From Acidobacteriota bacterium (GTDB lineage Bacteria; Acidobacteriota; Vicinamibacteria; Vicinamibacterales; CAVVIG01), in NCBI GenBank assembly GCA_043783985.1, contig JAYVYV010000174.1:1-32434 (forward strand): a stretch of DNA of 32,434 bases, written 5' to 3'. The translations under genes were made by a program, and so were the position numbers. Below are positions 494 through 30,850 of the stretch, in pieces (the first letter of the stretch is position 1; every line of letters begins with the position of its first letter). The notes under the pieces were generated by a model that ran no database searches, was not told the origin of the DNA, and saw only the letters and a program-made list of their open reading frames with translations.

Positions 494-570
<77 letters not shown>

Positions 571-5756: not shown

Positions 5757-5760
5757 ATTC
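5728..5760. repeat. AT-rich NGAATTC heptamer array with four GAATTC sites in 33 bp
   Basis: GAATTC at 5728-5733, 5741-5746, 5748-5753 and 5755-5760. GAATTCAG-ATT-CTGAATTC and CGAATTC-T-GAATTCG are palindromic. The array encodes the last codons and the TGA stop of the upstream gene and ends 3 nt before the moaA ATG. Confidence 0.9.
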
Positions 5761-5763
5761 GTT

Positions 5764-7337: not shown

Positions 7338-8768
7338 TCATGCCGAGCGTCGCGCCGCGGGCGGCGGCGCCTCCGCTGCGAGGTGATGGCGGTCGAGCCG
7401 GCGATACAGCGCGCGGCGGCTGATGCCCAGGACCTTCGCGGCCGCCATGCGATTGCCGTTGACCTGCCGCAGCACGTCGAGGATGTGCTCGCGCTCGATG
7501 GCGTCGAGCGGCGCCGGCTCGACGCCGCGTGCCGACAGCTCCGCGATCCTCCCGCGCGGTGACGAGGGGGCGTGCGTCTCGGGACCGAAGGCGCCCGCCA
7601 GCTCGCGCTCCGACAGGAGCGTCCCCTCCGACAGCATACAGGCGCGCTCGATCACGTTCTTCAGCTCGCGGACGTTGCCTTCCCACCGCGCGTTGAGCAG
7701 GACGCGCTCGGCGCCGGCGGTCAGGCCGTGGATCGGCTTCCGGATCCGCGCCGCGCACTCGCGCATGAACGCCCTGGTCAGATATGGAATGTCTTCGCGG
7801 CGCTCGCGCAGCGGCGGCAGGATCACCTCGACGACGTTGAGCCGGTAGAACAAATCGCCGCGAAAGCGTCCCGCGGCCACTTCGGCCCGCAAATCTCTGT
7901 TGGTGGCGGCGATCAGCGTCACATCCACGCGCTTCAACTGCAACGAACCCACACGCTGCACTTCGCCGTGCTCGATGGCGCGCAGCAGCTTGGCCTGCAC
8001 CGACAGCGGGAGCTCACCGACCTCGTCGAGAAACAGCGTGCCGCCATGCGCCGTCTCGAACACGCCTGGCTTCGATTCGACCGCGCCGGTGAACGCACCG
8101 CGCACGTGGCCGAAGAGCTCGCTCTCGAACAGCGTGTCCACCAGCGCCGAGCAGTTGATCGTGACGAACGGCTTGGTGCGTCGCGTTCCCGCGTGATGGA
8201 ACGCGCGCGCCGCGAGCTCCTTGCCGGAGCCCGTTTCGCCGCCGAGCAGCACGACCTTGGCGTGCGGCGCGAGGCGCTGGATGAGGCTGAAGACCTCCTG
8301 CATCAGGGGGCTGCGCCCGAGCATGCCGCAGAATTCGAGCTGCCGCGCGACCTCGCTCTCGAGCGCCAGCACCTGCGCCCGGCGCTCGAGTTCGGCGCGG
8401 ATGTCTTCGAGCACCTCCTTCAGACGATCGAAATCGAACGGCTTGGTGAGGTATTCGCGCGCGCCGAGCTTGATCGCCTCGACCGCGCTGTCGACGCCTC
8501 CATAGGCGGTCATCAGGATGACTTCGCACCCGGGCACCGTCGTGCGGATCTGGCGCAGCAGGTCGAGCCCGTTCACGTCCGGCATCCGCAGATCGACCAT
8601 CGCCAGATCGGCCGGCTTGCGCAGCAGCGTGCGCATCGCGTCGGCGCCGTTGGCGCAGGCGACCACGTCGAATCCGATTCTGGCCGCCAGCCGCTCCACG
8701 ATCTTGAGGACCGACATGTCGTCGTCCACGACGAGGAGCAGCGGGCGTGCGGTTTTAGAAGCGGTCAT
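7338..8768 (-). CDS. Sigma-54-dependent response regulator (NtrC family: REC + AAA+ + Fis-type HTH)
   Basis: The ATG at 8768 gives MTASKTARPLLLVVDDD... (receiver). Further motifs: GETGSGKELAARAFH (Walker A), GAFTGA (sigma-54 contact loop), TLFLDEVGEL (Walker B), and C-terminal AAKVLGISRRALYRRL. The 37-aa upstream extension in the track is rejected. Confidence 0.92.
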   Translation of the reverse strand: MTASKTARPLLLVVDDDMSVLKIVERLAARIGFDVVACANGADAMRTLLRKPADLAMVDLRMPDVNGLDLLRQIRTTVPGCEVILMTAYGGVDSAVEAIKLGAREYLTKPFDFDRLKEVLEDIRAELERRAQVLALESEVARQLEFCGMLGRSPLMQEVFSLIQRLAPHAKVVLLGGETGSGKELAARAFHHAGTRRTKPFVTINCSALVDTLFESELFGHVRGAFTGAVESKPGVFETAHGGTLFLDEVGELPLSVQAKLLRAIEHGEVQRVGSLQLKRVDVTLIAATNRDLRAEVAAGRFRGDLFYRLNVVEVILPPLRERREDIPYLTRAFMRECAARIRKPIHGLTAGAERVLLNARWEGNVRELKNVIERACMLSEGTLLSERELAGAFGPETHAPSSPRGRIAELSARGVEPAPLDAIEREHILDVLRQVNGNRMAAAKVLGISRRALYRRLDRHHLAAEAPPPAARRSA

Positions 8769-9101
8769 GGCGGTTGTGTGTGCGCGTTCCAATAAACGTG
8801 CCCCGGTTTCCACCGACGGAAGCCGCAGACATGGGCTGAACCGCACGACCACTGTGCGATTTTGACCACCTACGTGCAACTACGTGGGCGTTATAGCACA
8901 TAGGCGCGCACTTCCCGGAGGCGTTTCTTGCGCCGGTGGAGGACGGTGCTCGCCGATCACGGGTGCCCTGCCACGGCGCCGTCTCGAATCGTCGAAATCC
9001 GCGCGGTCCACGGCTATTCCGCTTCCGGGACCGCCTCGTCCCGCAGCCGGACACTCCTGCCCCACGATCGTTGGCGTTAACGTGGGTCTAACTTGCTCCT
9101 G

Positions 9102-9107
9102 TATAAT
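9102..9107 (+). promoter_or_regulatory. Candidate -10 box (perfect TATAAT) in the long intergenic region upstream of the efflux operon
   Basis: TATAAT at 9102-9107 in otherwise GC-rich DNA, 92 nt upstream of the ATG at 9199. Only a weak -35-like sequence (TTAACG) at non-ideal spacing. Confidence 0.25.
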
Positions 9108-9198
9108 GACTTACTTGTCGCACCCAGACGCGCGGCGTTGGCGCGGCGAACGCGCGATCGTTTGCTTGCACGTTTCCGTCTAAGCACACACAACACCC

Positions 9199-10452
9199 AT
9201 GGATATTGCACGCCCGTCCAATGCGAAGAAGAAGCGGATCAGGCAGGCGCTGTATGCCGGCGTCGGTCTCCTGGCCGTTGTGCTGGTCAGCGTGGGCTTG
9301 TCGCGGCTGAAGCCGGCGGCGCCGACGGTGGAGCGCGCGGTGGTCTGGCCGGCCAAGGTGGAGCGCGGCCCGATGGTGCGCCAGGTGCGCGGCCTGGGGA
9401 CGCTCACACCGGAAGACATCCGGTGGATCCCGGCGACCACGCAGGGCCGCGTCGAAAAAATCATCCTGCGGCCCGGCACCCGGGTGACCAGCGGCGACGT
9501 GATTCTCGAGTTGACCAACCCGCAGCTCGAACAGCAGCTGCAGGATGCGCAACTCAAACTGGGCGCCGCCGAGGCGGGCCTCGCGAACATCAAGGTGCAA
9601 CTGCAGAACGACCTGCTGCAGCAGCGCGCGGCGTCGGCGAACATCGAGGCCGATTTCAACAAGGCCAAGATGCAGGCGCAGATGAACGAGGCGCTCGCGG
9701 CGGACAAGCTGGTGTCCGACCTGGTGCTGAAGCAGTCGCAGGTGGATGCGCAGTCGCTCGGCGTGCGCAACCAGATTTCGAAGGACCAGCTCGCGAGCAA
9801 GGCCGATTCGATGCGCGCACAGCTGATGGTGCAGCAGTCGCTGGTGGACCAGGCGCGCGCCCTGCTCGCGTTGACGCGCCAGCAGCGCAACGAGCTGAAA
9901 GTGCGCGCCGGCCTCGACGGAATGCTGCAGCTGGTGCCGGTCGAAGTCGGACAGCAGGTCGCGCCGGGCACGAACCTCGCGCGCGTCGCGAATCCGAGCC
10001 GGCTGAAAGCGGAGATCAAAATCGCGGAGACGCAGGCGAAGGACATTCAGCTGGGCCAGAAAGCTGAAATCGACACCCGCAACGGGATCGTCGAAGGCCG
10101 CGTGGCGCGCATCGACCCGTCGGTGCAGAACGGCACGCGCACGGTCGACGTCACTCTCACCGGCGTGCTGCCCAATGGCGCGGTCCCCGACCTGAGCGTG
10201 GACGGCACCATCGAGCTCGAACGGCTGAACAACGTGCTCTTCATGGGCCGCCCCGCGTTCGGGCAGGACCAGAGCGTGGTCGGGCTGTTCAAGATTTCCG
10301 CCGACGGCTCGAACGCCGAGCGCGTGCAGGTGAAGCTCGGCCGCAGCTCTGTGAACACCATCGAGGTGCTGTCGGGTCTCAAGGTCGGAGACCAGGTGAT
10401 TCTGTCCGACATGTCGGCGTACGACGCATACGACCGCATCAGATTGAAATGA
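9199..10452 (+). CDS. Efflux periplasmic adaptor subunit (HlyD/MacA family)
   Basis: N-terminal membrane anchor, a lipoyl-like motif (GRVEKIILRPGTRVTSGDVILEL), a long coiled-coil hairpin (QLEQQLQDAQLKLGAAEAGL...), and a beta-barrel/MPD region (GIVEGRVARIDPSV..., LKVGDQVILSD). Confidence 0.9.
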   Translation: MDIARPSNAKKKRIRQALYAGVGLLAVVLVSVGLSRLKPAAPTVERAVVWPAKVERGPMVRQVRGLGTLTPEDIRWIPATTQGRVEKIILRPGTRVTSGDVILELTNPQLEQQLQDAQLKLGAAEAGLANIKVQLQNDLLQQRAASANIEADFNKAKMQAQMNEALAADKLVSDLVLKQSQVDAQSLGVRNQISKDQLASKADSMRAQLMVQQSLVDQARALLALTRQQRNELKVRAGLDGMLQLVPVEVGQQVAPGTNLARVANPSRLKAEIKIAETQAKDIQLGQKAEIDTRNGIVEGRVARIDPSVQNGTRTVDVTLTGVLPNGAVPDLSVDGTIELERLNNVLFMGRPAFGQDQSVVGLFKISADGSNAERVQVKLGRSSVNTIEVLSGLKVGDQVILSDMSAYDAYDRIRLK

Positions 10453-10464
10453 ACGCGCAGGTAA

Positions 10465-10525
10465 AGCCTGAGGCCTCGCGACGAGCGCGGATCGGACGGC
10501 AACAAGTCGCGCAGGCCTTCAGCCT
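10465..10525. repeat. Imperfect inverted repeat (hairpin) between the adaptor and ATPase genes
   Basis: AGCCTGAGGCCTCGCGAC (10465-10482) pairs with GTCGCGCAGGCCTTCAGCCT (10506-10525): 6 + 6 + ~5 bp with bulges and a 23-nt loop. The arm sequence CTGAGGCCT resembles the CTGAGGGCT heptamer arrays elsewhere in the window. Confidence 0.5.
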
Positions 10526-10543
10526 GCCGGGGAGACGAAGAGC

Positions 10544-11254
10544 ATGGCTGAGAACGGACAGGCGCTGATCAAGCTGGATGGCGTGACCAAGGTCTTCTTC
10601 ACCGACGAGGTCGAAACGCACGCGCTCTCCGGGATTCATCTCCAGATCGACAAGGGCGAGTACGTGTCGATCGCCGGCCCTTCGGGCTGCGGCAAGTCGA
10701 CGCTTCTCTCGATCTTGGGCCTGCTCGACTCGCCCACCGAAGGACAGTACCTGCTCAACAACCGGCCGGTCGCCGAGCTGCCCGCGTCGGAACGGGCGCG
10801 CGTGCGCAACCGCGAGATCGGGTTCATCTTCCAAAGCTTCAACCTGATCGGCGACCTCACGGTATTCGAGAACGTGGAGCTGCCGCTCACCTACCGGGGC
10901 ATGAAGGCCGCCGAGCGCAAGCAGCGCGTCGAGGCGGCGCTCGAGCGCGTCGGCATGGGGCATCGGGCGAAGCATCTGCCCAGCCAGCTTTCGGGGGGCC
11001 AGCAGCAGCGCGTCGCGGTGGCGCGCGCCGTCGCCGGCGAGCCGCTCATCCTGCTGGCGGACGAGCCGACCGGCAACCTCGATTCGCGCAGCGGCGAAGC
11101 GGTGATGGACCTCCTACGCGAGCTGCACCGCGCCGGCGCGACCATCTGCATGGTCACGCACGATCCGCGGTACGCGCGCCACGCCGATCGCAGCATCCAC
11201 GTCTTCGACGGCCGCGTCGTCGAAGAGCAGACCGAAATGGCTGTTACGGAATAA
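10544..11254 (+). CDS. ABC transporter ATP-binding protein (MacB/LolD-type)
   Basis: GPSGCGKSTLL (Walker A), FIFQSFNL (Q-loop), LSGGQQQRVAVARA (signature), LILLADEPTGNLD (Walker B), VTHD (H-loop). Confidence 0.93.
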   Translation: MAENGQALIKLDGVTKVFFTDEVETHALSGIHLQIDKGEYVSIAGPSGCGKSTLLSILGLLDSPTEGQYLLNNRPVAELPASERARVRNREIGFIFQSFNLIGDLTVFENVELPLTYRGMKAAERKQRVEAALERVGMGHRAKHLPSQLSGGQQQRVAVARAVAGEPLILLADEPTGNLDSRSGEAVMDLLRELHRAGATICMVTHDPRYARHADRSIHVFDGRVVEEQTEMAVTE

Positions 11255-11263
11255 GAACCCTGG

Positions 11264-11332
11264 CAGGGCTGGGGGCTCAGGGCTCCGGGCATCGAAGCCG
11301 GAAGAAGTCCTGAGCCCTCAGCTCTCAGCCCT
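11264..11332. repeat. Inverted heptamer arrays: CAGGGCTGGGGGCTCAGGGCTC (11264-11285) facing GAGCCCTCAGCTCTCAGCCCT (11312-11332)
   Basis: Same GAGGGCT/AGCCCTC unit family as 3757-3838. The arms can pair (7 bp + imperfect centre + 7 bp) around a 26-nt loop. The right arm ends 2 nt before the permease ATG (11335), which has no Shine-Dalgarno. Confidence 0.8.
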
Positions 11333-11334
11333 TC

Positions 11335-13740
11335 ATGTTTACTGATCTCAGGCAAGCGCTCCGGCTCCTCTACACGTCTCCGGGTTTCAGCACGCTGGTC
11401 GTGATCGTCCTGGCGCTGGGCATCGGCGCCAACACCGCCATCTTCAGCATCGTCAACGGCGTCCTGTTGAAGCCGCTGCCCTTTGCCGACCCCTCGCGCC
11501 TTGTGGCGATCGACACGACCGTGCGGAACGAGCCGGACGACACGGCGTACCTCGACGTGCTCGACTGGCGCGCCCAGGCCACGACTCTTGAACACATCGC
11601 CGCGTACGCGACCGCCGCCGTGACGCTGACCGGCCACGGCGAGGCGGCGTCGATCCCGACGGCGGTGGTCACCTCCGATGTGTTTCCCCTCCTTGGCGTA
11701 CCGCCGATCGCCGGTCGCTTGCTGGGCCCCGGCGACGATGCACGGGGAGCGGAGCGGACCGCGGTGATCTCCGAAACGTTGTGGGCGCGCTCGTTCGCAC
11801 ACGACGCCTCCATTGTCGGCAAGCCTGCGCTCCTGGACGGCGACCCGGTCGTCATCGTCGGCGTCATGCCGGCGCGCTTCGAGTTTCCGTTCGATTCCGA
11901 AAACCCGCCGCAGATCTGGATGCCGGTGCTCGCCTCGCGCTTCTCGGCGCAGTGGGCCGACCAGCGCGGCGCGGCCTTCCTGAAGGCGGTGGGACGGCTG
12001 CGCCAGGGCATCACCCTGAGATCGGCGCAGGCCGAGATGTCCGGCATCGCAGCCCGGCTCGACGCCGCCCACCCGCGCAACGGCAGCCACGGCCTCCTCG
12101 TTCGCCCGTTCCAGGAGGTGCTGGTCAAGAACTCCCGGACCGCGCTCTTCGCCCTGCTCGGAGCAGTCGTGGCGGTGCTGCTCATCGCGTGCGCCAACAT
12201 CGCGAACCTGCTGCTGGCGCGCGGCACGGCGCGGCGCCGCGAGATGGCCGTCCGCACGGCGCTCGGCGCGAGCCGCCTGCTCATCGTCCGGCTGTTGCTG
12301 ATCGAAAGCCTGACGCTCGCCGCCGCCGGCGGTGCGGCGGGAACCGTCGTCGCCCTGTGGGGCGTTGACGCGCTCGTCCGCATCAGCCCGGTGCAGATCC
12401 CGCGTCTCAACACGATCCACATCGATCGCAGCGTGCTGATGTTCACGGTGCTGGCGTCGCTGTTGACCGGCGCGCTCTGCGGCCTTCTCCCCGCCCTGCA
12501 GCTGTCGCGGTCGAACCCGGGCGACGCGTTGAAGAACGGCAATCGCGGCGGGAGCAGCGGACGCAGCGTGCGCACCCGTCACGCGCTCGTCGTCGCCGAA
12601 GTCGCGCTGTCGCTGATGCTGCTCGCCTCCGCCGGCCTGCTGATCCGTAGCCTCAGCGGCCTGCAGCACGTCAGCCCCGGCTTCACCACCGAGCGCGCCG
12701 TGACGATGCAGTTGCTGCTGCCGCAGGGGCGTTACGGCGACGCCGCGTCGATCATCGCGTTCTACCGTCGGCTGCGGAACGAGGTCGCCGTCCTTCCGTC
12801 GGTCACCGCGAGCGCCGTCTCCACCACCCTGCCGATGACCGGCAGCGACATCACGATGGGATTCAGGCCCGACGGCCGCGCGGCCGAACCGGGCGTCCGG
12901 ACGTCGGCGGCCTTCTTCGGCGTCAGCCCCGACTACTTCTCGACGATGGGGATTCGGATCGTGCGCGGGCGCGGCTTCACGGAGCGCGACGACGAGCGCG
13001 CCGCCGGCGTTGTCGTGATCAACGAGACCATGGCGGCCAAGTACTGGCCGGGCGAGGATCCGATCGGCAAGCGGGTGACGCTGAGCTACAACAACACTCC
13101 TCCGCGCGAGATCGTCGGCATCGCCGGCGACGTGAAGCAGACCCGCCTCACCGACGCCGTGACGGCGCAGATGTACACGCCGTTCGTCCAGGCGCCGTGG
13201 CCGTTCCTGACCGCCGTCGCGAAGACCGCGGCGGCGCCTGACGCGGCGGCCGGACTGCTGCGCCGGGCGCTGGCGCACCTCGATCCGGAGCAGGCGGCAG
13301 GAGAGATCCGGACGTTCGACCAGTACCTGGCCCGATCGATCGCGACGCCGCGCTTCACGGCGACTCTGCTGGGAACCTTCGCGGCCCTGGCACTGTTGCT
13401 CGCCGGCTTCGGTCTCTACGGGGTGATGGCATATACCGTCGCTCAGCGTCGCCGCGAGATCGGCGTCCGCATGGCGCTCGGCGCGCAGGCCGCCGACGTC
13501 CGATGGCTGGTGGTGAGTCAGGCCGTGCGTCTTGGCGCGGCGGGGCTGGCGCTGGGGCTGGCCGGCGCGCTGGCGGTCACGCGCGTGCTCGACAGCCTGC
13601 TGTTCGGCGTGACCGCCTCGGATCCACTGACGTTCGCCGCCGTCTCCGCCGCGTTGATTATGGTGCTCGTTCTCGCGGCGTATCTCCCGGCGCGGCGCGC
13701 GACGCGCGTCGACCCCATCGCGGCACTCAGAGCGGACTGA
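11335..13740 (+). CDS. ADOP-family (duplicated MacB-like/FtsX) ABC transporter permease
   Basis: 801 aa. N-terminus MFTDLRQALRLLYTSPGFSTLVVIVLALGIGANTAIFSIVNGVLLKPLPF is typical of ADOP/MacB permeases. Two FtsX-type modules: CANIANLLLARGTARRREMAVRTALGASR... and VMAYTVAQRRREIGVRMALGAQ... Confidence 0.93.
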   Translation: MFTDLRQALRLLYTSPGFSTLVVIVLALGIGANTAIFSIVNGVLLKPLPFADPSRLVAIDTTVRNEPDDTAYLDVLDWRAQATTLEHIAAYATAAVTLTGHGEAASIPTAVVTSDVFPLLGVPPIAGRLLGPGDDARGAERTAVISETLWARSFAHDASIVGKPALLDGDPVVIVGVMPARFEFPFDSENPPQIWMPVLASRFSAQWADQRGAAFLKAVGRLRQGITLRSAQAEMSGIAARLDAAHPRNGSHGLLVRPFQEVLVKNSRTALFALLGAVVAVLLIACANIANLLLARGTARRREMAVRTALGASRLLIVRLLLIESLTLAAAGGAAGTVVALWGVDALVRISPVQIPRLNTIHIDRSVLMFTVLASLLTGALCGLLPALQLSRSNPGDALKNGNRGGSSGRSVRTRHALVVAEVALSLMLLASAGLLIRSLSGLQHVSPGFTTERAVTMQLLLPQGRYGDAASIIAFYRRLRNEVAVLPSVTASAVSTTLPMTGSDITMGFRPDGRAAEPGVRTSAAFFGVSPDYFSTMGIRIVRGRGFTERDDERAAGVVVINETMAAKYWPGEDPIGKRVTLSYNNTPPREIVGIAGDVKQTRLTDAVTAQMYTPFVQAPWPFLTAVAKTAAAPDAAAGLLRRALAHLDPEQAAGEIRTFDQYLARSIATPRFTATLLGTFAALALLLAGFGLYGVMAYTVAQRRREIGVRMALGAQAADVRWLVVSQAVRLGAAGLALGLAGALAVTRVLDSLLFGVTASDPLTFAAVSAALIMVLVLAAYLPARRATRVDPIAALRAD

Positions 13741-20630: not shown

Positions 20631-23312
20631 GTGCCTTATACTCGGCCGGTGCGCATCCGCGTGATCCTGTCTCTCCTGGTCTTCTCCATCCCGATCGCCC
20701 TCGTCGGCGAAGGACGCGTCCCGACACCGGAATCGGTCTTCGGCTTCCGACCCGGCGCCGACTACAAGCTCGCAACCTACGATCAATCGATCGAGTACTT
20801 CAAGAAAGTCGCCGCCGGCAGCAAGTACGTGAAGCTCGTCGAAGCCGGAAAGACCAGCCAGGGGCGCGCCATGTACTTTGCCCTGGTGTCGTCGCCCGAC
20901 AACCTCGCCAGGCTCGATCGCTACCGCGAGATTGCGCGGCGTCTTGCGCACCCGCAAGGGCTGACCGACGCCGACGCGAAAACGCTGGCGCGCGACGGCA
21001 GGGCGTTCGTCCACATCGACGGCGGGCTCCACTCCACCGAGGTCGCCGGACCGCAGCACACGCCGCAGCTGCTCTACGATCTGGTCAGCAAGGCGGACGA
21101 AGTCGACACCAGGGCCATCCTCAACAACGTCGTCGTCATGCTGTGGCCGACCATCAACCCGGACGGCCAGCAGATGGTCTCCGAGTGGTACATGCAGAAC
21201 GTCGGCACGCCGTACGAGCTGTCCGGTTTGCCGCGGCTGTACCAGGAATATGTCGGCCACGACAACAACCGCGACGCGTACATGCTGAACATGGTCGAGT
21301 CGCGCGTGCTCGAACACACGTGGCGGCAGTGGGAGCCGCAGATCATTTACGTCCATCACCAGTCGGGTCCCTTTCCCAGCCGCATCTGGCTGCCGCCGTT
21401 CTCCGAACCCGTCGGCAGCGACGCGCCGTTCATCATGTCGCGCGAGGTGAACATGATCGGCATGGCGATCGCCAAGGGTCTCGAGGAGCGCGGGCAGGTG
21501 GGCGCCACGCACATGGGTACGGCGTTCGATGCGTGGTACCCGGGGTACGTGGACTACGCGCCCAACTTCAAGAACATCGCGGCGTTCTGGACGGAGACGG
21601 CGCTCTTCCAGTACGCGACGCCGCACGACTACACGATCGGCGACTTCCCGCAGAACATGCGCGACCTGCGGCCGCAGAGCCTGTACTCGAGCCCGTGGCC
21701 GCCCGGCACATGGCGCCTGCGCGATGCGGTGGATTACATGGAAACGGCGTCGCTGTCGGTGCTCGAGTTCGCCGCGAAATACAAGGACTCGCTTCTCTTC
21801 GATCGGTATCAGGCGGGACGCGATCAGATCGCGCTCGGGAAGAAGAAGGCGCCCTTCGCGTACTTCGTCCCCCAGCAGCAGCGCGATCCGGTCGCGGCCG
21901 TGGAGATGCTGCGCCGCATCGCGTTCGGCGGCGTGCGCGTCTCCATGTTGACCGCGCCCGTGACGATCGGCGGGGACACCTTCCCCGCCGGCACGTGGGT
22001 CGTTCCCACCGATCAGGAATTCGCCGCGATGGCGCGCGAGGTGCTCGACGCGCAGACGTATCCGGATCTGAGGCAGTATCCGGGCGGCCCGCCCGAGCGG
22101 CCGTACGACGCCGCCGGCTGGTCGCTTCCCCTGCAGATGGGCGTGCGGGTGGTCGCGGCGGCGTCGCCACTGACCGACGAGATGCGCGCGAAGCTGACGG
22201 TCATCGGCGCGATGCCCGACCCGAAGAGCAAGCCGACCCCGTACGACGCGGGCCTCCACACCGATGCCGCGCCGTTCGACAGCCTGCCGGGCGTCGGGTT
22301 CAACACGGATCCGGCGTCGGCTGCGATCGTCCCCATGCCGGGGCGGATCACCGGATCGGGACCGGTGCTCCTCGTGGATCCGGCGCAGAACAACGCGTTC
22401 AAAGCCATCAACCGCGCGTGGACGCTGGGGGCGACGGCGCAGGCCAGCGCCGGTGCGGCGGGCGCGCCGATTCGCTACGCTCTGCGCGGCCTCTCGAGCA
22501 GCGCGCAGGAGGACCTGGTCCGGTCCCTGTCGCTACAGGCCGAGCGGGCGGAGTCCGCGCCGGGCCGCGCGGTACGGCGGCCGCGCATCGGCGTGTATCA
22601 GCCGTGGACCGGGAGCATGGACGAGGGGTGGACGCGCTGGGTGCTCGAGCAGTACGGCTTCTCGTTCGTCGCCGTGCACCCGGAAGACTTCACATCGCCG
22701 CTCGCGCAGACCATCGACGTCCTGATCATGGCCGACGATGCGCGTGTGCCGGTGGCGGGGGCGGCCGGGGGGCGCGGCGGACGCGGAGGGCCGGCGGCGG
22801 CGGTGCGGCCCGAGTACGCCTATCAGCTGACGGCGACCGACCTCCAGGGATTCGAGCGGTTCGTCCGCAACGGCGGCACCGTCGTCTGCCTGAGCAACGC
22901 GAGCGCCTTCGCGATCCAGCAGCTGAAGCTGCCGGTGACCAACGTCGTCGCCGGCCTGCGGCCGGAGGAGTTCTTCCTGCGCGGATCGATCGTCGAGGTC
23001 ACTACCGATCCGACGCACCCGGTGATGGCCGGCATGCCCGACAAGGCCGCGGTGTTCGTCGACGGCAGCCCGGTCTTCGAGACGCAGGACGGCTTCAAGG
23101 GCACGATCCTCGCGCGCTACCAGGATTCCGGATCGCCGCTGCTGTCGGGCTATCTGATTGGCGAGCAGCACCTGCAGGGGAAAGCGGCGGCGCTCGACGT
23201 CCAGCTCGATGCGGGCCACGTCGTGCTGATCGGGTTCCGGCCCGAGTGGCGCGGCCAGCCGTTCGGCACATTCCGGATATTGTTCAACGCCGCGCTGTTC
23301 AGCCGTTCGTAA
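20631..23312 (+). CDS. M14-family metallopeptidase (zinc carboxypeptidase-like) with a large C-terminal extension
   Basis: FVHIDGGLHSTEVAG (HxxE zinc ligands), WPTINPDGQQ, YVGHDNNRDAYM. Signal-like RIRVILSLLVFSIPIALVG. GTG at 20631; an alternative GTG lies at 20649. Confidence 0.87.
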   Translation: MPYTRPVRIRVILSLLVFSIPIALVGEGRVPTPESVFGFRPGADYKLATYDQSIEYFKKVAAGSKYVKLVEAGKTSQGRAMYFALVSSPDNLARLDRYREIARRLAHPQGLTDADAKTLARDGRAFVHIDGGLHSTEVAGPQHTPQLLYDLVSKADEVDTRAILNNVVVMLWPTINPDGQQMVSEWYMQNVGTPYELSGLPRLYQEYVGHDNNRDAYMLNMVESRVLEHTWRQWEPQIIYVHHQSGPFPSRIWLPPFSEPVGSDAPFIMSREVNMIGMAIAKGLEERGQVGATHMGTAFDAWYPGYVDYAPNFKNIAAFWTETALFQYATPHDYTIGDFPQNMRDLRPQSLYSSPWPPGTWRLRDAVDYMETASLSVLEFAAKYKDSLLFDRYQAGRDQIALGKKKAPFAYFVPQQQRDPVAAVEMLRRIAFGGVRVSMLTAPVTIGGDTFPAGTWVVPTDQEFAAMAREVLDAQTYPDLRQYPGGPPERPYDAAGWSLPLQMGVRVVAAASPLTDEMRAKLTVIGAMPDPKSKPTPYDAGLHTDAAPFDSLPGVGFNTDPASAAIVPMPGRITGSGPVLLVDPAQNNAFKAINRAWTLGATAQASAGAAGAPIRYALRGLSSSAQEDLVRSLSLQAERAESAPGRAVRRPRIGVYQPWTGSMDEGWTRWVLEQYGFSFVAVHPEDFTSPLAQTIDVLIMADDARVPVAGAAGGRGGRGGPAAAVRPEYAYQLTATDLQGFERFVRNGGTVVCLSNASAFAIQQLKLPVTNVVAGLRPEEFFLRGSIVEVTTDPTHPVMAGMPDKAAVFVDGSPVFETQDGFKGTILARYQDSGSPLLSGYLIGEQHLQGKAAALDVQLDAGHVVLIGFRPEWRGQPFGTFRILFNAALFSRS

Positions 23313-23330: not shown

Positions 23331-24020
23331 ATGAAGACAATGGCACGCACGTTCGGAGTCGGTCTCACGCTGGCGATCGCCGGAGGCTCGTATCTCGCAG
23401 ACGCGCAGCAGCCGCCGGCGGCTCCGGCGCCGCCGATGTCGTTCTTCGTGACGAGCGCCGGATCCGGCAAAGGCGCGGATCTGGGCGGCATCGCCGGCGC
23501 AGATCGGATCTGCCAGACGCTGGCGACGGCTGCCGGCTCCAGCAAGACATGGCACGCGTATCTGAGCGCGGCCGCGGCCAACGGTCAGCCGGCGGTCAAC
23601 GCCCGGGAACGGATCGGCGCCGGCCCCTGGTTCAGCGCGAAGGGAGGGCGGATCGCGCAAAGCGTGGCGGACCTGCACGGCGACACGCTCGAGATGGCCC
23701 GTCGCGGCAACAACATCAACAAGACGACCGCTCTGACGGAAAAGGGGGAACCGGTCAACGGCGTCGGCGACACGCCGAACCAGCACGACATGATCACCGG
23801 ATCGCAGCTCGACGGCACCGCGTTCGCGGACGCGGCGGATCACACCTGCGCCGGTTACACCAGCAGCGCCACCACCGGCGTCGTGCAGCTCGGGCACCAC
23901 GACCGGACCGGCGGCGGCAACACGTCGTGGAACTCGACGCATCCCAGCCGCGGATGCAGTCAGGACAACCTGGTGGCCACGGGCGGCGCGGGACGGTTCT
24001 ACTGCTTTGCGATCAACTGA
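23331..24020 (+). CDS. Secreted protein with endostatin / DUF1554-like (C-type-lectin-fold) motif pattern
   Basis: Strong RBS (GGAGGAG) and signal peptide MKTMARTFGVGLTLAIAGGSYLADA. GIAGADRICQTLATAAGSSKTWHAYLS parallels endostatin [27 protein letters not shown]. The C-terminal FYCFAIN parallels IVLCIEN. It has four Cys in the same order as endostatin. Confidence 0.8.
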   Translation: MKTMARTFGVGLTLAIAGGSYLADAQQPPAAPAPPMSFFVTSAGSGKGADLGGIAGADRICQTLATAAGSSKTWHAYLSAAAANGQPAVNARERIGAGPWFSAKGGRIAQSVADLHGDTLEMARRGNNINKTTALTEKGEPVNGVGDTPNQHDMITGSQLDGTAFADAADHTCAGYTSSATTGVVQLGHHDRTGGGNTSWNSTHPSRGCSQDNLVATGGAGRFYCFAIN

Positions 24021-25292: not shown

Positions 25293-25751
25293 TTACCCGC
25301 GTCCGCGCTGTTTCATCGTCTTCATCGACGCCTTGCCGGCCTGAAGCGTCACGCGCTTGGCTTCGGCCGCGACCGTACGGAGATCGCGCGGAACCGGCTT
25401 GCGGTGCTTCTTACCCGGAGCATCGACCACGCCGCCGCTGCGGCCCCTGGGGCTCTTCGAGCTGGTGGCGGCGCTGACCGCCGTCTTCTTCGCGGCTTTG
25501 GTCAGGCTCGTCACGCCATCGGAGAGTTGGTCGAGCAGTTCGGCCGCGCTGTCGCGCACGCTGGTGATCTGCTTGTTCAGCGCGTCGCGGTCCATCCAGC
25601 CTTCAGCCCTGGCCTGAACGGTGCCCACCATTCGCCCGAGTTGCTCCGCGAACGCCATCACCCGCTGCTCCATGGCGTCGGTGGCCGTGTTGTTGGCTGT
25701 CCTGGCCGTTGGTGCAGTGCTCCCTTTCCCGCCGTTGTCGCGCTTCGCCAT
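25293..25751 (-). CDS. Small basic hypothetical protein (helical core, Lys/Arg-rich C-terminus)
   Basis: ATG at 25751 preceded by GGAG (6-nt spacing), 152 aa, high third-position GC. The sequence runs MAKRDNGGKG...EQRVMAFAEQLGRMVGTVQARAEGWMDRDALNKQI...GKKHRKPVPRD...KTMKQRGRG. The 60-aa upstream extension in the track is rejected. Confidence 0.65.
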   Translation of the reverse strand: MAKRDNGGKGSTAPTARTANNTATDAMEQRVMAFAEQLGRMVGTVQARAEGWMDRDALNKQITSVRDSAAELLDQLSDGVTSLTKAAKKTAVSAATSSKSPRGRSGGVVDAPGKKHRKPVPRDLRTVAAEAKRVTLQAGKASMKTMKQRGRG

Positions 25752-25855
25752 GCGAGCTCCATATCTGTGGCGTTCAATCGCCGCCCGATCGTGAGCAGGT
25801 TTCATGCCGCCGACTCGCCTCAGCTGGCGCACGCCTTGCTCTGGTGTCGGGCGTG

Positions 25856-27013
25856 ATGAGGCGCTGGTACCTAGTTTCGACCGCCGCGTTTCTGGCGGCC
25901 TCAATCGCGCTCGCGGTATGGCTGCTCCCAACCGGGCGCGAGCAACCGCCGTACGCCTTCGCGCGCGCGCGGGTGAAACATGCCTGGCCGATCGACGGGT
26001 CGGCGCCGGAAGACTCGCGAACGCACGCGCTCAGGCTGGCCCGGGTCTGGATGCCGACCGACGCGGCGTCGGTGGACCTCGGGATCAACCCGGCTGACCC
26101 CGCCGGCACGTTGTCGGAGACGATCGTCCGCTGCCGCTACCTCGACAGTCCCGCCCGCGGCACGACGGCGAAGTTCGACTGCGTGCTGCGCGACGGCGAA
26201 GTCGTGAAGGTGAAATACGGACACACCGGCGAAATTCACGCGGAGCTCGCCGCCACCCGCCTGCTGTCCGCGCTCGGCTTCGGCGCCGATCGCATGTTTC
26301 TGATCCCAAGCCTGCGCTGCTACGGCTGCGTCCGGACGCCGTTCTACACGAACTGGTTGCTCGACAAAGTCCATGCGCGAGAGCTGGTGGTCGCTTCGGT
26401 TGCGGACGACCGCTACACCGACTTCTCCTGGGTCGCGGTCGAGCGGCGCTTCGACGGCCTGTCGATCGAGGCCGGCGACCACGAGGGGTGGGCGTGGTTC
26501 GAGCTCGAATCGATCGATCCCGCGGTCGGCGCCAACCAAGCGGAACGTGACGCGCTCCGCCTGATGGCGATCCTGCTCGCGCACTGGGACAACAAGGCCT
26601 CCAACCAGCGGCTCGTCTGCCTCGCGCCGGAACCGTCAGCCGCCGCACCCTGTCCCCGCCCGTTTGCGTTGATCAACGACCTCGGCGCGACCTTCGGGCC
26701 CAACAAGGTGGAACTCGACCACTGGAAAGCGGCGCCGATCTGGGCGGACCGCGGGCGCTGCACGGTCAGCATGCGACAGTTTCCATACAGCGGCGGTACG
26801 TTTTCCGACAGGACGATCTCGGAGGCCGGGCGCCAGCTGATCGCGCATCAGCTGGCCGCGCTCACCGCGCGTCAGGTGACGTCGCTCTTCTCGGGCGCGC
26901 GGTTTCGTGAATTCTACGGAGGCAGAGGCGCGGACGCCGACGTGGGCGCCTGGACAGCGGTGTTTCTGGACAAGGTCCGGCAGATCGCGGACGGCGGCCC
27001 CTGCCCGTCGTAG
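25856..27013 (+). CDS. Membrane-anchored or secreted protein-kinase-like-fold protein, Cys-rich (uncharacterised family; paralogue of 23999-25057)
   Basis: The ATG at 25856 gives MRRWYLVSTAAFLAASIALAVWLL (N-in anchor or signal). Motifs: VVKVKYGHTGEIHAELAATRLLSALGF; HWDNKASN (26582-26605, an HxDxKxxN pattern); INDLGATFG (D at 26678-26680, a DxG). Eight Cys. The upstream 49 aa of the track ORF overlap the divergent gene and are rejected. Confidence 0.8.
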   Translation: MRRWYLVSTAAFLAASIALAVWLLPTGREQPPYAFARARVKHAWPIDGSAPEDSRTHALRLARVWMPTDAASVDLGINPADPAGTLSETIVRCRYLDSPARGTTAKFDCVLRDGEVVKVKYGHTGEIHAELAATRLLSALGFGADRMFLIPSLRCYGCVRTPFYTNWLLDKVHARELVVASVADDRYTDFSWVAVERRFDGLSIEAGDHEGWAWFELESIDPAVGANQAERDALRLMAILLAHWDNKASNQRLVCLAPEPSAAAPCPRPFALINDLGATFGPNKVELDHWKAAPIWADRGRCTVSMRQFPYSGGTFSDRTISEAGRQLIAHQLAALTARQVTSLFSGARFREFYGGRGADADVGAWTAVFLDKVRQIADGGPCPS

Positions 27014-27022
27014 GCGTTGGCG

Positions 27023-28510
27023 TTATTTCGTGCGCGGCTTCACCTGGTCGATGTACCACCCGACGCGAGCCGGCGAATCGCCATGCGACTCGGATCCGTT
27101 CAGGTAATACCGGACGACGCCGCCGGCGTCCACATAGAAGGTGGCCGGCAGGTTGTCGAATCCCATCGCCGTTTCAGCCTGTCGCGCGTCCATACGCACC
27201 ACCGGGAAGGGAAACTTCATCTCGGCCAGATAGCGTCGCAACCGCTTGTCGTCTTCGTCGAGGCTGACTAGCAGGAAGGCCACGCCGGGGTCGGCTTGAT
27301 ACTTCGCGTACGAGGCTTTCAGGTGCGGTAACTCCGCACGGCAGATCCCTCACCAGGAGGCGAAGAAATTCAGGAGCAGGACCTTGCCGCGAAGGCCCGA
27401 TGCGTCGTACGGCTTTCCACCGAGGTCCGTGAACGCCAACACCGGGAGGGGCCGATCGACCAGGCTTCTCAGCGCAGCGGCCTTGCGCTCGTCGCGGCGC
27501 CGCGTGAGCTCGGACTCGAGCCACGCGTCGAACCCGGCGGCGTCGCCGCCCTGCGTCTGGAGGGCGGCCAGCGCGTCCTTGGCCCGCTGCCGCAGCGGCG
27601 CGAGGCCGCCTGCCAGCGAGAGCGCCTCGAGATAGTGATCGCGCGCGCGCACGGGCACCTTCTGCACCCGCGCGAGCTCGGCCATGTGAAACTGGTTCAC
27701 GACGTCGAGCCCCTGCGACAGCCGTTCCGCTTCCCCGAGTTTCGCGGCCGCGGCCGCGTAGTCCTTCTCGAGCACCAGCGCCCATCCGGCGAGATCAGCC
27801 GCCGCGGCCCGTCCGCGCGCGTAGGCGCTCTGTGACTTCCCGGTCATCTGATACGCGCTGAGATTCTCGTCGATAAAGCGATCGGAAGCGGCGGCGCCGC
27901 GGCCGGCCAGCGCGATCGCGCGGTCGTACTCGCCGCGATCGATCAGCATCTGCGCGCCGGTAAAGAACGGCGCCGGATCGGCCTGCGCCTTGGCGCGCGC
28001 CTCGACGGCCGCGAGGATCTGCGCGACCACAGCGGGGTCAGACGCCGATGCCGGCGCCGTGGTCTGCAGGGCCAGTAGCGCCGCGTCGAGCGCGCGGATC
28101 TCCGGGCGCGGCGGCGCGGGATCGACGGTGTCGGCGGCGGCGAAACCTTCCGCGACGCGGAGGGCGTCCCGAGCGGATGCGCGGCCCGGATCGGTGGCGA
28201 CCGCGGTCTTCAGCTCGACCAGCGCGCGCGCGCGGAGCGACGGCTCGTCGTGCCATCCGGGAAACGCGTTTTCCTGCTGCCACCCCTTGAAAGTGTACAG
28301 GCGGCCGAGCGCTTCGTGCGCCGCCGCCTTGGTGTCGCGATCGCGCGCCGCCTCTTCCAGCGCCGCGATCGCACTCTTCGCCAGCCGCTGTTCCCACAGC
28401 GCGGTCCCGCGCGCCAATGGCTCCCGCGGCGGGCTCTGGGCGGACCCGCCGGCGGCTGACGCGAGGACGGCAACGGCTATCGCACACGCGGTGGATCTCG
28501 TCACGCGCAC
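27023..28510 (-). CDS. TPR-like + TlpA/ResA-like thioredoxin-fold protein with in-frame UGA at the CxxC position (probable selenoprotein, U-G-I-C)
   Basis: Track ORFs 27350-28510 and 27023-27283 are in the same frame. Reading through the TGA (27352..27350) gives ...GKVLLLNFFASW-U-GICRAELPHLKASYAKYQADPGVAFLLVSLDEDDKRLRRYLAEMKFPFPVV...NLPATFYVDAGGVVRY. This is a complete TlpA-like domain with the stop at the first redox Cys. N-terminal signal peptide MRVTRSTACAIAVAVLASAAGGSAQ. Confidence 0.72.
27323..27352 (-). other. UGA plus candidate bacterial SECIS hairpin
   Basis: The mRNA reads UGA-GGGAUCUGCC-GUGCGG-AGUUA-CCGCAC: a 6-bp GC-rich stem starting 10 nt after the UGA, with a 5-nt apical loop whose second base is G. 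A possible lower stem forms between GAGG (overlapping the UGA) and CCUC downstream. Confidence 0.5.
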
Positions 28511-28522
28511 AGTGTAATTGAA

Positions 28523-30850
28523 TCAGAAATCAAAGAGCCGCGTGAATTTGACGATGAAGGATCGCCCCAGCGTCTCTTCTGGGTTGAACACGGTCGTGTC
28601 TCGGCGGTCGTTGTACACCACGAACAACCCGGTGCCGCTGCGGTTGAGCAGAGCCAGGCGGACGTTAGACGTCAGCAGCGACGACTGGTTGTTGTACTGG
28701 ACGAGCGCCTGGATGCTCGCCAGCGTGGTGAAGGCGTAGCTCACTTTCACCGGGACCAGGTCGGTGTGAAACTTGCCGGACGGAAGGTCGACGTTCTGCC
28801 GGGTCCAGCCGACCGATCCGACGAACCGGGCGCCGGCGCGCCAGTTGAGCGCCGCCTCGTACGCGTCGAAGTCGCCGTCATAGAAGCTGCCGTGCCGCCA
28901 CCGCAGCGCGGTGGCCAGGACGGCGCTGGGATCGCTCTGGAACTCGTTCGAAATCTGGCGCCACGTGTACAGCCCCGGCGCAATGACCACCTTGTGGCCG
29001 CCGGCGTTGAACACCGTGAACGGCGCGAGCGGCCGATCCTGGAAGCGGTCGACCCACGTGCCGAAACGGCCGCCTTGCTTCGGGTCAATCTCGAGGAAAT
29101 GGATATGCGTCATCGAGCTCTGGAGCTGGCCGTCGGCGACGCCGTAGTACGAGTTGTAGGCGACGTGCGGAGAAATCCGCCGGATCCACGGCCACCGCTT
29201 GGGCTGGGGCTGGAAGAACACGCGGAACTCCGGGTGGCGATAGCCCTTGCGGGGCAGGTACCCGACCTCCGGATTGAAGTTGGCGCCCACCTGCGAATAG
29301 CCGCCTGAGGCCAGCCACAGGTTGTTCGTGAAGTTGTAGAACACGCGCTCCGAGTGGTCGGTACCGCCCTTGACTAGCGGTGACGTGGTGCCCGCGACGT
29401 ACGCAAACACCTTGGAGTTCTTCGTCACCTGCACGTTGGCATCGAGGCCGTAGGCGCGATTGAAGTCGTTCGCGCCCGCGTAGCGTCCGGTACCTTCGCG
29501 ATTCACGAGGATCGCGCCGAAATTGGACCGGCCGATTTCGCGCTGCACCCGCAGGACGCCGAAATTGTTCGCGGCCGTGACCAGCCTCGCGGTCTGCGGA
29601 TCCAGTGCCGAATCGGTCTGCATGTCGAGCAGCCCGATGTTGAAGGCGCCAACTTTTCCCGACAGGCGCGCGCCGCCGTTGATGTCGATGGGCAGCCCCG
29701 AGGAGCCGGTCGCGGACAACCCGATGCGCCGCGAGAAGAAGAGGTCCACCTGCTGGGGCGCGCCGAACTGGAAGACCGACGCGTTCTCGAGGAAGAACGG
29801 GCGTTTCTCGGGAAAGAACAGGTCGAAGCGGGTCAGGTTCAACTGCTCCTCGTCGGCTTCCACCTGCGCGAAATCGGTGTTGACGGTGAAGTCGGCGGTG
29901 AGGTTCGGCCGCACGCCCCATTTGACGTCGAGGCCGACGTTGCGGTCCTCGACCGGGTTCACCCGGCTGACCACTTGGTTGGTCGGCACGGTGTAGTCCT
30001 TGTTGACGGACGCAAGCACGTAGGGGATGAGCTTGAGATCGTGACGCGCGGGCAGGTCGAGCCCGGTCAGTTTCGCCGCCGAGGACACGCGATAGATGTC
30101 GAACCCCCGCCCCACCGGCGACAGAAACACTTGCTCGTTCTTGCGACGGATATTGCGCTTGAGGTTGAAGCCCCACGTGCGGTTGCTGCCGACCGGATAC
30201 CGCAGGGTCTTGAGCGGAATCGCAAGCTCGGCTTCCCAGCCGCGCTCGGTGATCGCCGTCTTTACGCGCCAGTCGCCGTCCCAGTTGGCGTTGAATGAAC
30301 TGATCGTACCGCGTTGGGATCCGCCCCCTCCCGATACGTTCGAGGAGATACCGCCCGTCTGGCCTTCACCCGACACCTGGCCGTCGTACTCGATACCGAG
30401 GGGATTGGTGCCGAAGACAAAAGCGTTCTGGTTGTCGTTGAACGTGTCGAGCACCAGGATGATCGCGTCGGTCTCGGTCAGATCCGCGTCCCGGCGGTTC
30501 TGGCTGACGACGATCTTCGACGGGTCCGAGTCGAAACAGATCACGCCGATGTACACATGCGTTTTGTCGAAGAGGACGCGGACCTCCGTGCGCTCGGTTG
30601 CGGGCGCGCCTTCAACCGGGTCGGTCTGCGTGAACGTCGCATACGACGCGACCTTGAGCCAGGCATCCTCGACGACTCTCCCGTCGAGGGTGGGGGCGGG
30701 GGTGCCTTCGGGCAGGCGCCCGGCCGACAGCTGAACCGGCGCGGGGTCCGCCGCGGTCCGCGGGGCGCCGGCCGCGCCCGGCGGCGCCAGCAGACCGGAG
30801 CAGAAGATGCCAATCACCCACCAGCGGTTGGACCAACGCCGATTCAGCAT
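28523..30850 (-). CDS. DUF5916 / carbohydrate-binding-family-9-like outer-membrane protein
   Basis: The ATG at 30850 gives MLNRRWSNRWWVIGIFCSGLLAPPGAAG (signal). LDGRVVEDAWLKVASYATFTQTDPVEGAPATERTEVRVLFDKTHVYIGVICFD...RRDADLTETDAIILVLDTFNDNQNAFVFGTNPLG is the CBM9-like N-terminal pattern. The body is long and beta-rich, ending in ...TRLFDF (terminal aromatic residue, as in OM barrels). Confidence 0.85.
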   Translation of the reverse strand: MLNRRWSNRWWVIGIFCSGLLAPPGAAGAPRTAADPAPVQLSAGRLPEGTPAPTLDGRVVEDAWLKVASYATFTQTDPVEGAPATERTEVRVLFDKTHVYIGVICFDSDPSKIVVSQNRRDADLTETDAIILVLDTFNDNQNAFVFGTNPLGIEYDGQVSGEGQTGGISSNVSGGGGSQRGTISSFNANWDGDWRVKTAITERGWEAELAIPLKTLRYPVGSNRTWGFNLKRNIRRKNEQVFLSPVGRGFDIYRVSSAAKLTGLDLPARHDLKLIPYVLASVNKDYTVPTNQVVSRVNPVEDRNVGLDVKWGVRPNLTADFTVNTDFAQVEADEEQLNLTRFDLFFPEKRPFFLENASVFQFGAPQQVDLFFSRRIGLSATGSSGLPIDINGGARLSGKVGAFNIGLLDMQTDSALDPQTARLVTAANNFGVLRVQREIGRSNFGAILVNREGTGRYAGANDFNRAYGLDANVQVTKNSKVFAYVAGTTSPLVKGGTDHSERVFYNFTNNLWLASGGYSQVGANFNPEVGYLPRKGYRHPEFRVFFQPQPKRWPWIRRISPHVAYNSYYGVADGQLQSSMTHIHFLEIDPKQGGRFGTWVDRFQDRPLAPFTVFNAGGHKVVIAPGLYTWRQISNEFQSDPSAVLATALRWRHGSFYDGDFDAYEAALNWRAGARFVGSVGWTRQNVDLPSGKFHTDLVPVKVSYAFTTLASIQALVQYNNQSSLLTSNVRLALLNRSGTGLFVVYNDRRDTTVFNPEETLGRSFIVKFTRLFDF

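Follow-up and report, generated by a model that had tools for sequence, protein, structure and literature searches.

Where does a gene end when a UGA falls inside one of its domains? The question is posed by a locus on the minus strand of contig JAYVYV010000174.1 (GenBank assembly GCA_043783985.1), from an Acidobacteriota bacterium of the Vicinamibacterales; the whole stretch of DNA analysed, positions 1 to 32,434 of this contig (32,434 nucleotides), is referred to below as the window. An open reading frame (ORF) of 386 aa, 28510..27350, starts with GTG at 28510 and ends in ...GKVLLLNFFASW, its last residues reading LLLNFFASW, directly before a TGA at 27352..27350. The same frame then continues as GICRAELPHLKASYAKYQADPGVAFLLVSLDEDD...FPFPVV...NLPATFYVDAGGVV... 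for 108 sense codons up to a TAA at 27025..27023, and an 86-aa 'orphan' ORF that begins with GTG (27283..27023) forms the end of this post-TGA frame. The minus-strand sequence, the ORF list and the translation all bear out an earlier reading of the sequence (hereafter the original prediction), which had described both the ORF end at the TGA and its continuation.

The original prediction held that the locus is a single 495-aa selenoprotein gene rather than a truncated gene followed by an orphan. The complete read-through coding sequence occupies 27023..28510 on the minus strand and consists of 386 codons, the UGA as selenocysteine (Sec), 108 codons and a TAA, giving 495 residues with a tetratricopeptide repeat (TPR)-redoxin layout. 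Collinear orthologues, a domain that spans the stop and a conserved TGA with an adjacent hairpin support the single gene, and those of the proposed checks that were run all came out favourably. We place the probability of one read-through gene, decoded via a hairpin of the selenocysteine insertion sequence (SECIS) type, at about 0.95, and the residue at the UGA is, as far as sequence comparison can tell, very probably Sec. In sequence of 67% GC, an open downstream frame is by itself unremarkable, and so is such a hairpin; the present case goes beyond chance because one Pfam domain spans the stop, the stop aligns with the first Cys of ResA, and the TGA together with its hairpin recurs in 52 loci.

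A redoxin domain spanning the UGA

The UGA lies inside a thioredoxin-fold (redoxin) domain of the TlpA/ResA/DsbE type, which covers residues 353-477 (27080..27454, minus strand) and was recognized by Pfam, PDB and Foldseek comparisons. In the Pfam search, run with Cys substituted for the stop, residues 353-477 gave single matches across position 387 to AhpC-TSA (57.6 bits, cutoff 26) and Redoxin (56.4 bits, cutoff 26.6), and a Thioredoxin_8 match (40.9 bits) also spans residue 387. The best solved relative by PDB sequence match is ResA 4nmu (E = 3.8e-16), in which LNFWGTWCKPCEKEMP aligns with LNFFASW-(stop)-GICRAELP; WCKPC lies over W-(stop)-GIC, with the stop on the nucleophilic Cys. The active-site motif is accordingly read as U-G-I-C (UxxC; 27341..27352, minus strand), where the UGA at 27352..27350 replaces the nucleophilic Cys and a TGC at 27343..27341 encodes the resolving Cys. 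This second Cys is invariant among the orthologues described below, both in unique sequences with TGA at codon 387 (Sec-type, 43/43) and in those with a Cys codon there (Cys-type, 34/34). The cis-Pro is Pro455 in NLPATF (27146..27148, minus strand), which aligns with ...gvgpLPtsFliD of ResA and forms an invariant column among orthologues; its motif, LPatF as compared with LPtsF in ResA, is encoded solely downstream of the UGA.

The ResA alignment thus bears out the claim that the stop sits at the nucleophilic Cys with the cis-Pro encoded only after it, and the TlpA-like thioredoxin fold that had been proposed stands on Pfam, PDB sequence matches and structural comparison alike. The NCBIfam models for ResA (NF002854), DsbE (TIGR00385) and TlpA (NF047696) gave 71.3, 53.2 and 50.1 bits against cutoffs of 170, 123 and 230, respectively. 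All three scores are far under their cutoffs, and the protein is therefore a TlpA-like homologue and not an orthologue of ResA, DsbE or TlpA.

In any single sequence, the usual cause of an in-frame TGA is a pseudogene, a sequencing or assembly error, or a lineage-wide reassignment of UGA. Such causes have a next to negligible probability at this locus. The same TGA is present in two further assemblies of independent SRA runs, which match the gene with 0 mismatches and agree with the window at 99.83% of positions across 3 kb, the five differing positions all being outside the gene; an identical TGA in independent assemblies and samples rules out an error at this codon. As to reassignment, seven other window genes supported by GC content at third codon positions end in TGA, including the DUF5916 gene just upstream. 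When 657 kb of acidobacterial DNA was scanned for other in-frame TGA codons flanked on either side by coding signal, all that emerged were additional members of the same family and adjacent genes that share a frame by chance. Both observations exclude a lineage-wide change in the meaning of UGA.

Orthologues with cysteine or UGA at the same codon

A protein database search returned 504 homologues, and the residue counts that follow refer to the best 120 of these 504. Full-length proteins (462-508 aa) with W-C-G-x-C account for 116 of them, and the remaining 4, including the window's own product, end exactly at ...NFFASW. Where named, these homologues are TlpA/redoxin family proteins from Vicinamibacterales or Acidobacteria, and no selenoprotein annotation is attached to any of these closest 120 entries. 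Full-length Cys orthologues of 480-495 aa are collinear with the read-through protein at up to 80% identity. The three truncated proteins from elsewhere share 78-83% identity with the window protein; they lie on independent contigs, and on each of these the TGA is succeeded by 107-108 codons that encode the intact domain in frame.

Scans of genome and metagenome collections added 160 loci, 86 of which, from independent metagenomes and metagenome-assembled genomes (MAGs), were clear orthologues. Codon 387 is TGA in 52 of the 86 and TGC or TGT in 34, and the host lineage is Vicinamibacterales / Acidobacteria subgroup 6. Five named GTDB representative MAGs have the TGA type (L006, L008, L010, L011 and L017 in our locus set), namely QHWJ01 (gp6 AA46), QHWF01 (gp6 AA50), MNEX01 (13_1_40CM_65_14), CAWGRQ01 (MFD05942.bin.2.344) and JBKPAI01 (GB_HAYS_MAG_00009), on contigs QHWJ01000043, QHWF01000130, MNEX01000081, CAWGRQ010000047 and JBKPAI010000004. 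MAGs of the Cys type include CAWCFI01, JAOBWF01, DAIUKO01, CAVTHG01 and CAWCDQ01. Homologues that remain collinear over the stop with Cys aligned to the UGA, which the original prediction had proposed to look for, comprise 34 loci and 116 database proteins.

The part of the gene beyond the UGA is open and constrained in all of these relatives. TGA loci that reach far enough always have 104-109 open codons after the TGA, and Cys genes have 105-112. Over codons +12 to +99, beyond the hairpin, the median pairwise ratio of non-synonymous to synonymous substitution rates (dN/dS) of Sec-type sequences is 0.25 at a median dS of 0.80, and that of Cys-type sequences is 0.32; upstream of codon 387 the values are 0.18 and 0.28, respectively. 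A pseudogene tail at such divergence would be expected to drift to dN/dS = 1 and to collect stops and frameshifts. Decay or loss of frame in TGA-bearing relatives, named beforehand as a refutation, was looked for and never seen; purifying selection was found instead. Identity among Sec-type proteins goes down to 56%, and because these genes differ so widely the UGA must be old. A nonsense-mutation pseudogene is ruled out by the TGA in 52 loci down to 56% identity, the intact frame and the dN/dS of 0.25, and derivation of the 52 loci from one contaminating sequence is excluded by their 56-100% divergence.

These data also bear on the reading in which the UGA is a true stop. The product would then be a stand-alone 386-residue periplasmic TPR protein, accompanied by a separately initiated C-terminal fragment or by nothing, and the hairpin after the stop would have another purpose, for instance mRNA stability or translational coupling. 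Gene callers in all public sources examined have treated the locus so, always splitting it into a domain-less protein of 386-396 aa and a fragment of about 100 aa; the downstream 86-aa ORF with its GTG start exists, and termination always competes with Sec insertion, which makes some truncated product likely. However, the split falls between strand beta1 and the active-site helix, and neither half is a complete domain. Moreover, the codons from the UGA to the first downstream start stay in frame at every locus and encode a conserved protein sequence, 52/52 loci keep their frame relation to the upstream part, and Cys-type orthologues run through uninterrupted. We regard termination as the sole fate of this UGA as extremely improbable. 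A variant in which Sec insertion competes with termination, and the selenium supply switches the output between the stand-alone TPR protein and the TPR-redoxin fusion, is conceivable yet unlikely.

Within the family, Cys and Sec have been exchanged repeatedly. A neighbour-joining tree built from 75 full-length read-through sequences has Cys-type proteins as its most divergent members, and in it the Sec type forms a large deep clade with several nested Cys subclades. Parsimony requires 6 state changes on the observed tree and 5-10 in 200/200 bootstrap trees, as compared with about 23.5 for shuffled states, and the family has thus undergone at least five switches between Cys and Sec. The pattern fits an old gain of Sec from Cys, followed by repeated reversions to Cys and possibly a second gain. 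Dynamic Cys/Sec exchange at UxxC redox selenoproteins is a known evolutionary signature (PMC1794560).

The hairpin and the identity of the inserted residue

The candidate SECIS is the hairpin GUGCGG-AGUUA-CCGCAC at 27323..27339 on the minus strand, with a 6-bp stem and a 5-nt loop that carries G at its second position (5' arm 27339..27334, loop 27333..27329, 3' arm 27328..27323). A 10-nt spacer, GGGAUCUGCC (27340..27349, minus strand), separates it from the UGA, and the loop starts 16 nt after the UGA, exactly the geometry that had been described (6 bp, AGUUA, 10 nt after the UGA, loop at 16 nt). The isolated hairpin core has an energy of -8.8 kcal/mol, and it is the sole stable element in both the minimum-energy and the centroid fold of an 81-nt region. 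The published consensus for the bacterial SECIS (bSECIS) has 3-9 nt in the apical loop and 4-16 bp in the upper stem; one of the first two loop nucleotides is a G, as a rule with G or U after it, the UGA-to-loop distance is 16-37 nt, and the minimum free energy is at most -7.5 kcal/mol (PMC13188914). All of these properties are found here, with a loop of AGUUA or AGUUG (A-G-U-U-R), 6 bp, 16 nt and -8.8/-9.0 kcal/mol.

The hairpin shows a strict link to the TGA state. All six Watson-Crick pairs are present in 52/52 TGA loci and in 0/34 Cys loci, which have 3-5 pairs, and a hairpin folded at the homologous position reaches -8.8/-9.0 kcal/mol in TGA loci versus a median of -4.3 in Cys loci. Even the Cys subclades nested in the Sec clade are without the full six-pair stem, which evidently decayed in them after reversion. 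With this link and the published bSECIS constraints, the proposed fit to a generic bacterial SECIS is upheld.

The link extends to codon choice, compared between 43 unique Sec-type sequences and up to 34 Cys-type sequences. Gly at +1, next to the UGA, is GGG in 42/43 Sec-type and 9/34 Cys-type sequences. Arg at +4 is CGT in 43/43 as against 0/25 (CGC or CGG instead), Ala at +5 is GCG in 43/43 as against 17/32, and Glu at +6 is GAG in 43/43 as against 30/34. Leu at +7 is TTG or TTA in 42/43 Sec-type sequences and TTG in 3/33 Cys-type ones (mostly CTG), and Pro at +8 is CCG in 43/43 and 33/34, respectively. Position +9 is His, encoded by CAC, in 43/43 Sec-type sequences; in the Cys type it is His CAC in 14/34 and Gln in 16/34. 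Synonymous sites beside the hairpin codons are free to vary (dS about 0.8). The codons CGT (Arg) and TTR (Leu) are rare in the genome and unusual for a high-GC family, and they are exactly what the stem needs.

Several further features were observed around the UGA. At codon +9 (27323..27325), where His is fixed in the Sec type, the last stem pairs seem to dictate the amino acid. Upstream, Asn at -6 (27368..27370) and Leu at -9 (27377..27379) track the Sec type, which has KVLLLNFFASW where most Cys types have KVVLLDFFASW. A divergent member at position 4057 (+) of locus L144, reading ...LLNFFTSW-TGA-GACRAELP, carries the identical hairpin GTGCGG-AGTTG-CCGCAC; it was missed by the initial motif pattern, and the true Sec-type count is slightly above 52. 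RNAalifold proposed a further 7-bp helix at 27346..27366 (minus strand; A3 columns 5-24), which pairs the Phe-Phe-Ala codons (UUCUUCGC) with G-UGA-GGG and would sequester the UGA. It is weak, with three G-U pairs and no covariation, and may be explained by coding constraints alone.

Conservation of this kind shows hairpin-aided decoding and is silent on the identity of the residue, which leaves room for hairpin-dependent recoding of UGA to something other than Sec, either by a tRNA(Cys)-UCA with a SelB paralogue or by an acidobacterial allo-tRNA acting as an opal suppressor. Precedents for both exist, as a selC* tRNA(Cys)-UCA with SelB* is found in Deltaproteobacteria and allo-tRNAs that are possible nonsense suppressors are found in Acidobacteria (Mukai et al. 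2016, PMC5389517). However, the selC*/SelB* pair has been reported in anaerobic Firmicutes, Thermodesulfobacteria, Nitrospirae and Proteobacteria, and not in Acidobacteria (PMC5389517). Inserting Cys through a costly and inefficient UGA would bring no gain over the TGC of the 34 orthologues, yet the UGA has been kept down to 56% identity. Further, the hairpin matches the SelB-type bSECIS model (PMC13188914), and repeated Cys/Sec exchange at a UxxC motif is an established pattern of true selenoproteins (PMC1794560). Non-Sec recoding is therefore very improbable; if true, it would mean that an abundant soil lineage naturally uses a SECIS to direct the insertion of a residue other than Sec.

Sec decoding through this hairpin has, in turn, a number of observations weighing against it. 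Folding of the 81-nt region compared with shuffled sequence gives z = -0.01, and thermodynamics alone is therefore uninformative here. Some hairpin compatible with a generic bSECIS follows 16.8% of the TGA triplets in the window (an equally good and close one follows 1.7%), and the UGA-loop spacing of 16 nt is the lower limit of the published range. The stem offers no compensatory covariation because it is invariant across the family, and the support for an RNA structure consists of the frozen synonymous sites and the contrast with the Cys type. Rfam at gathering thresholds found no SECIS family in the whole window, and at permissive E-values it gave only chance miRNA-like matches in 27200..27420; bacterial SECIS elements are hardly covered by Rfam.

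The genomic and literature context is similarly sparse. No other selenoprotein genes were seen in the 657 kb of acidobacterial DNA, and neither selA, selB or selD (tblastn with E. coli queries) nor tRNA-Sec (aragorn) was found in 1.68 Mb from 168 loci with flanks of up to 20 kb, a negative that is uninformative because only flanks, and short ones, were covered. Nor is there any report of Sec use in Vicinamibacteria in the searchable literature, and Peng 2016 does not mention this class. For Acidobacteria as a whole, three selenoprotein families were listed by Zhang et al. 2006 (PMC1794560), and the deep-Sep paper used Occallatibacter riparius as a Sec-utilising test genome.

A probable TPR-fused selenoprotein and its place in Vicinamibacteria

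Selenoproteins with a TlpA-like thioredoxin fold and a UxxC motif are a known class, in which the present family appears to be an undescribed, TPR-fused and systematically mis-annotated member. The 'Thiol:disulfide interchange protein' selenoprotein family has UxxC and PF13098 (exemplar WP_011366075.1), and related predicted families are the 'Prx-like thiol:disulfide oxidoreductase' and the 'Redoxin family protein' (PF08534, UxxC, HEU0032618.1) (PMC1794560, PMC13188914). With these the window family shares the TlpA/DsbE-like thioredoxin fold, Sec in place of the N-terminal Cys of CxxC, the existence of Cys orthologues and a SECIS directly after the UGA. PF13098 is recorded for most orthologues, and in the window protein it falls short of E<=0.01. 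The described families are mainly from Deltaproteobacteria and marine metagenomes and are single-domain, whereas a TPR-like N-terminal domain of about 320 residues is present here and the family is confined, among the homologues and loci searched, to Vicinamibacterales / Acidobacteria subgroup 6. The window family may nevertheless coincide with the 'Redoxin family protein' entry.

Another TlpA/ResA-like selenoprotein family, NF041054 (WAxxUGC_long), likewise has Sec directly after a conserved Trp-Ala-x-x. The window protein scores 42.7 bits against its cutoff of 300, has U-G-I-C (UxxC) instead of U-G-C, and bears an N-terminal TPR domain where NF041054 has a C-terminal extension; judged by score, motif and layout, it is not a member. 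ResA (Bacillus), TlpA (Bradyrhizobium) and CcmG/DsbE are CxxC thiol-disulfide reductases that act in the maturation of cytochrome c and Cu centres. They share the fold (TM 0.75-0.85), the active-site position and the cis-Pro with the window protein, and also an extracytoplasmic location, which is known for them and predicted here; they differ in being Cys enzymes, membrane-anchored or lipoproteins, without a TPR domain. In the SECIS of E. coli fdhF, the model case for bacteria, the minimal SelB-binding stem-loop begins about 11 nt downstream of the UGA, and its apical loop contains G-U. As in fdhF, the present hairpin lies inside the coding sequence, its stem beginning 10 nt after the UGA and its loop reading A-G-U-U-R, but it lacks both the bulged U and the extended lower helix, measures only 17 nt and does not vary within the family.

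The N-terminus carries a signal-peptide-like segment, MRVTRSTACAIAVAVLASAAGGSA followed by Q (28439..28510, minus strand), with a basic n-region, a hydrophobic core and an A-x-A-like site. Equivalent segments are present in orthologues, and the segment has a low predicted local distance difference test (pLDDT) score in the structural model; it probably acts as a signal peptide of the general secretory type that directs periplasmic export. The following all-alpha helical-repeat (TPR-like) domain, approximately residues 30-345 (27476..28423, minus strand), was recognized by Foldseek and in an AlphaFold2 model, built from a 48-sequence alignment, of P0001, which at 80% identity is the nearest Cys orthologue of full length. 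The model (pLDDT 85.5, predicted TM score 0.83) has 16 helices over residues 25-346, mostly with pLDDT >85, and then a thioredoxin fold. Foldseek against the PDB matched the helical part to SPINDLY (SPY), OGT-TPR and designed consensus TPRs with a probability of 1.0 and TM 0.2-0.37, such low TM values being expected for solenoids, and the C-terminal part to ResA, DsbE and TlpA with TM 0.75-0.85. The TPR assignment of the original prediction is thus supported structurally through this orthologue, and not by Pfam, where the window protein has no TPR match at E<=0.01 and some orthologues have weak ones. The orthologue alignment contains invariant residues in the N-terminal domain (FKGWQQE, FPGWHDEP and DRFIDENLSAYQM.GK), which suggest a specific ligand or client.

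Taken together, the minus-strand gene 28510..27023 would encode an exported 495-residue protein in which a signal peptide is followed by a TPR-like domain of about 320 residues and then by a UxxC redoxin domain. The UGA at 27352..27350 would be recoded as selenocysteine (residue 387), with the 17-nt hairpin 10 nt downstream acting as a bacterial SECIS that, while the ribosome pauses at the UGA, recruits SelB with Sec-tRNA(Sec) to it. Once mature, the protein is most likely a periplasmic thiol-disulfide reductase, in which the selenolate would attack a substrate disulfide or sulfenate and Cys390 would resolve the selenenylsulfide, the TPR domain probably selecting the client protein. The comparisons show directly that the gene is continuous, that its UGA is conserved, that selection acts on the part beyond it and that the RNA hairpin goes with the UGA; Sec as the inserted residue, the periplasmic location, the reductive direction and a part of the TPR domain in binding the client are what we infer from them.

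The gene neighbourhood is conserved on one side. Downstream, the window and loci L001-L003, all Sec-type contigs, have in common a convergent protein of 385-434 aa, a 229-aa protein and an M14 zinc carboxypeptidase (window 25709..27013, 23331..24017 and 20631..23309, plus strand; 7500..13000 in L001-L003); the first two have no Pfam match. The upstream neighbours vary, with F420-related genes and an ABC-F ATPase in L002 and L003 and a 791-aa DUF5916/CBM9-like gene in the window. The latter ends in a TGA at 28523..28525, 12 nt before the GTG start, and is probably co-transcribed with the selenoprotein gene; if so, one transcript carries one terminating and one recoded UGA. No CcdA/DsbD, ccm (cytochrome maturation), Sco or selenium genes are present within the window.

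Elsewhere in the window, a radical-SAM protein is followed by MoaA of molybdenum cofactor biosynthesis (Mob_synth_C) at 4638..6780 (plus strand). Among bacterial selenoproteins, formate dehydrogenase and other molybdopterin enzymes are the most common, and no molybdopterin enzyme gene of the formate dehydrogenase type lies within the window. A sigma-54-dependent response regulator adjoins an HlyD / ABC ATPase / MacB-FtsX efflux cluster at 7341..13737, and a tRNA-Pro(CGG) at 494..570 is the sole tRNA of the window; the efflux cluster, the regulator and this tRNA are ordinary context genes.

The finding is useful for annotation and for the study of SECIS evolution, and should come as no surprise to a selenoprotein specialist. 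The split annotation affects 52/86 of the orthologous loci sampled (60%), and hundreds of entries from soil metagenomes and MAGs would be put right by a curated model that places U at the active site. At each switch between Cys and Sec the hairpin appears or decays with the codon, and the hairpin seems to dictate His at +9; the family thus provides a clean system for following the origin of a SECIS inside a coding sequence and the retention or loss of Sec at a UxxC site. Vicinamibacteria abound in soil, are for the most part uncultured and do not usually figure among Sec users. Our results indicate that this group (Acidobacteria subgroup 6) needs selenium for a redox enzyme of its envelope, which would tie the availability of selenium in soil to their physiology.

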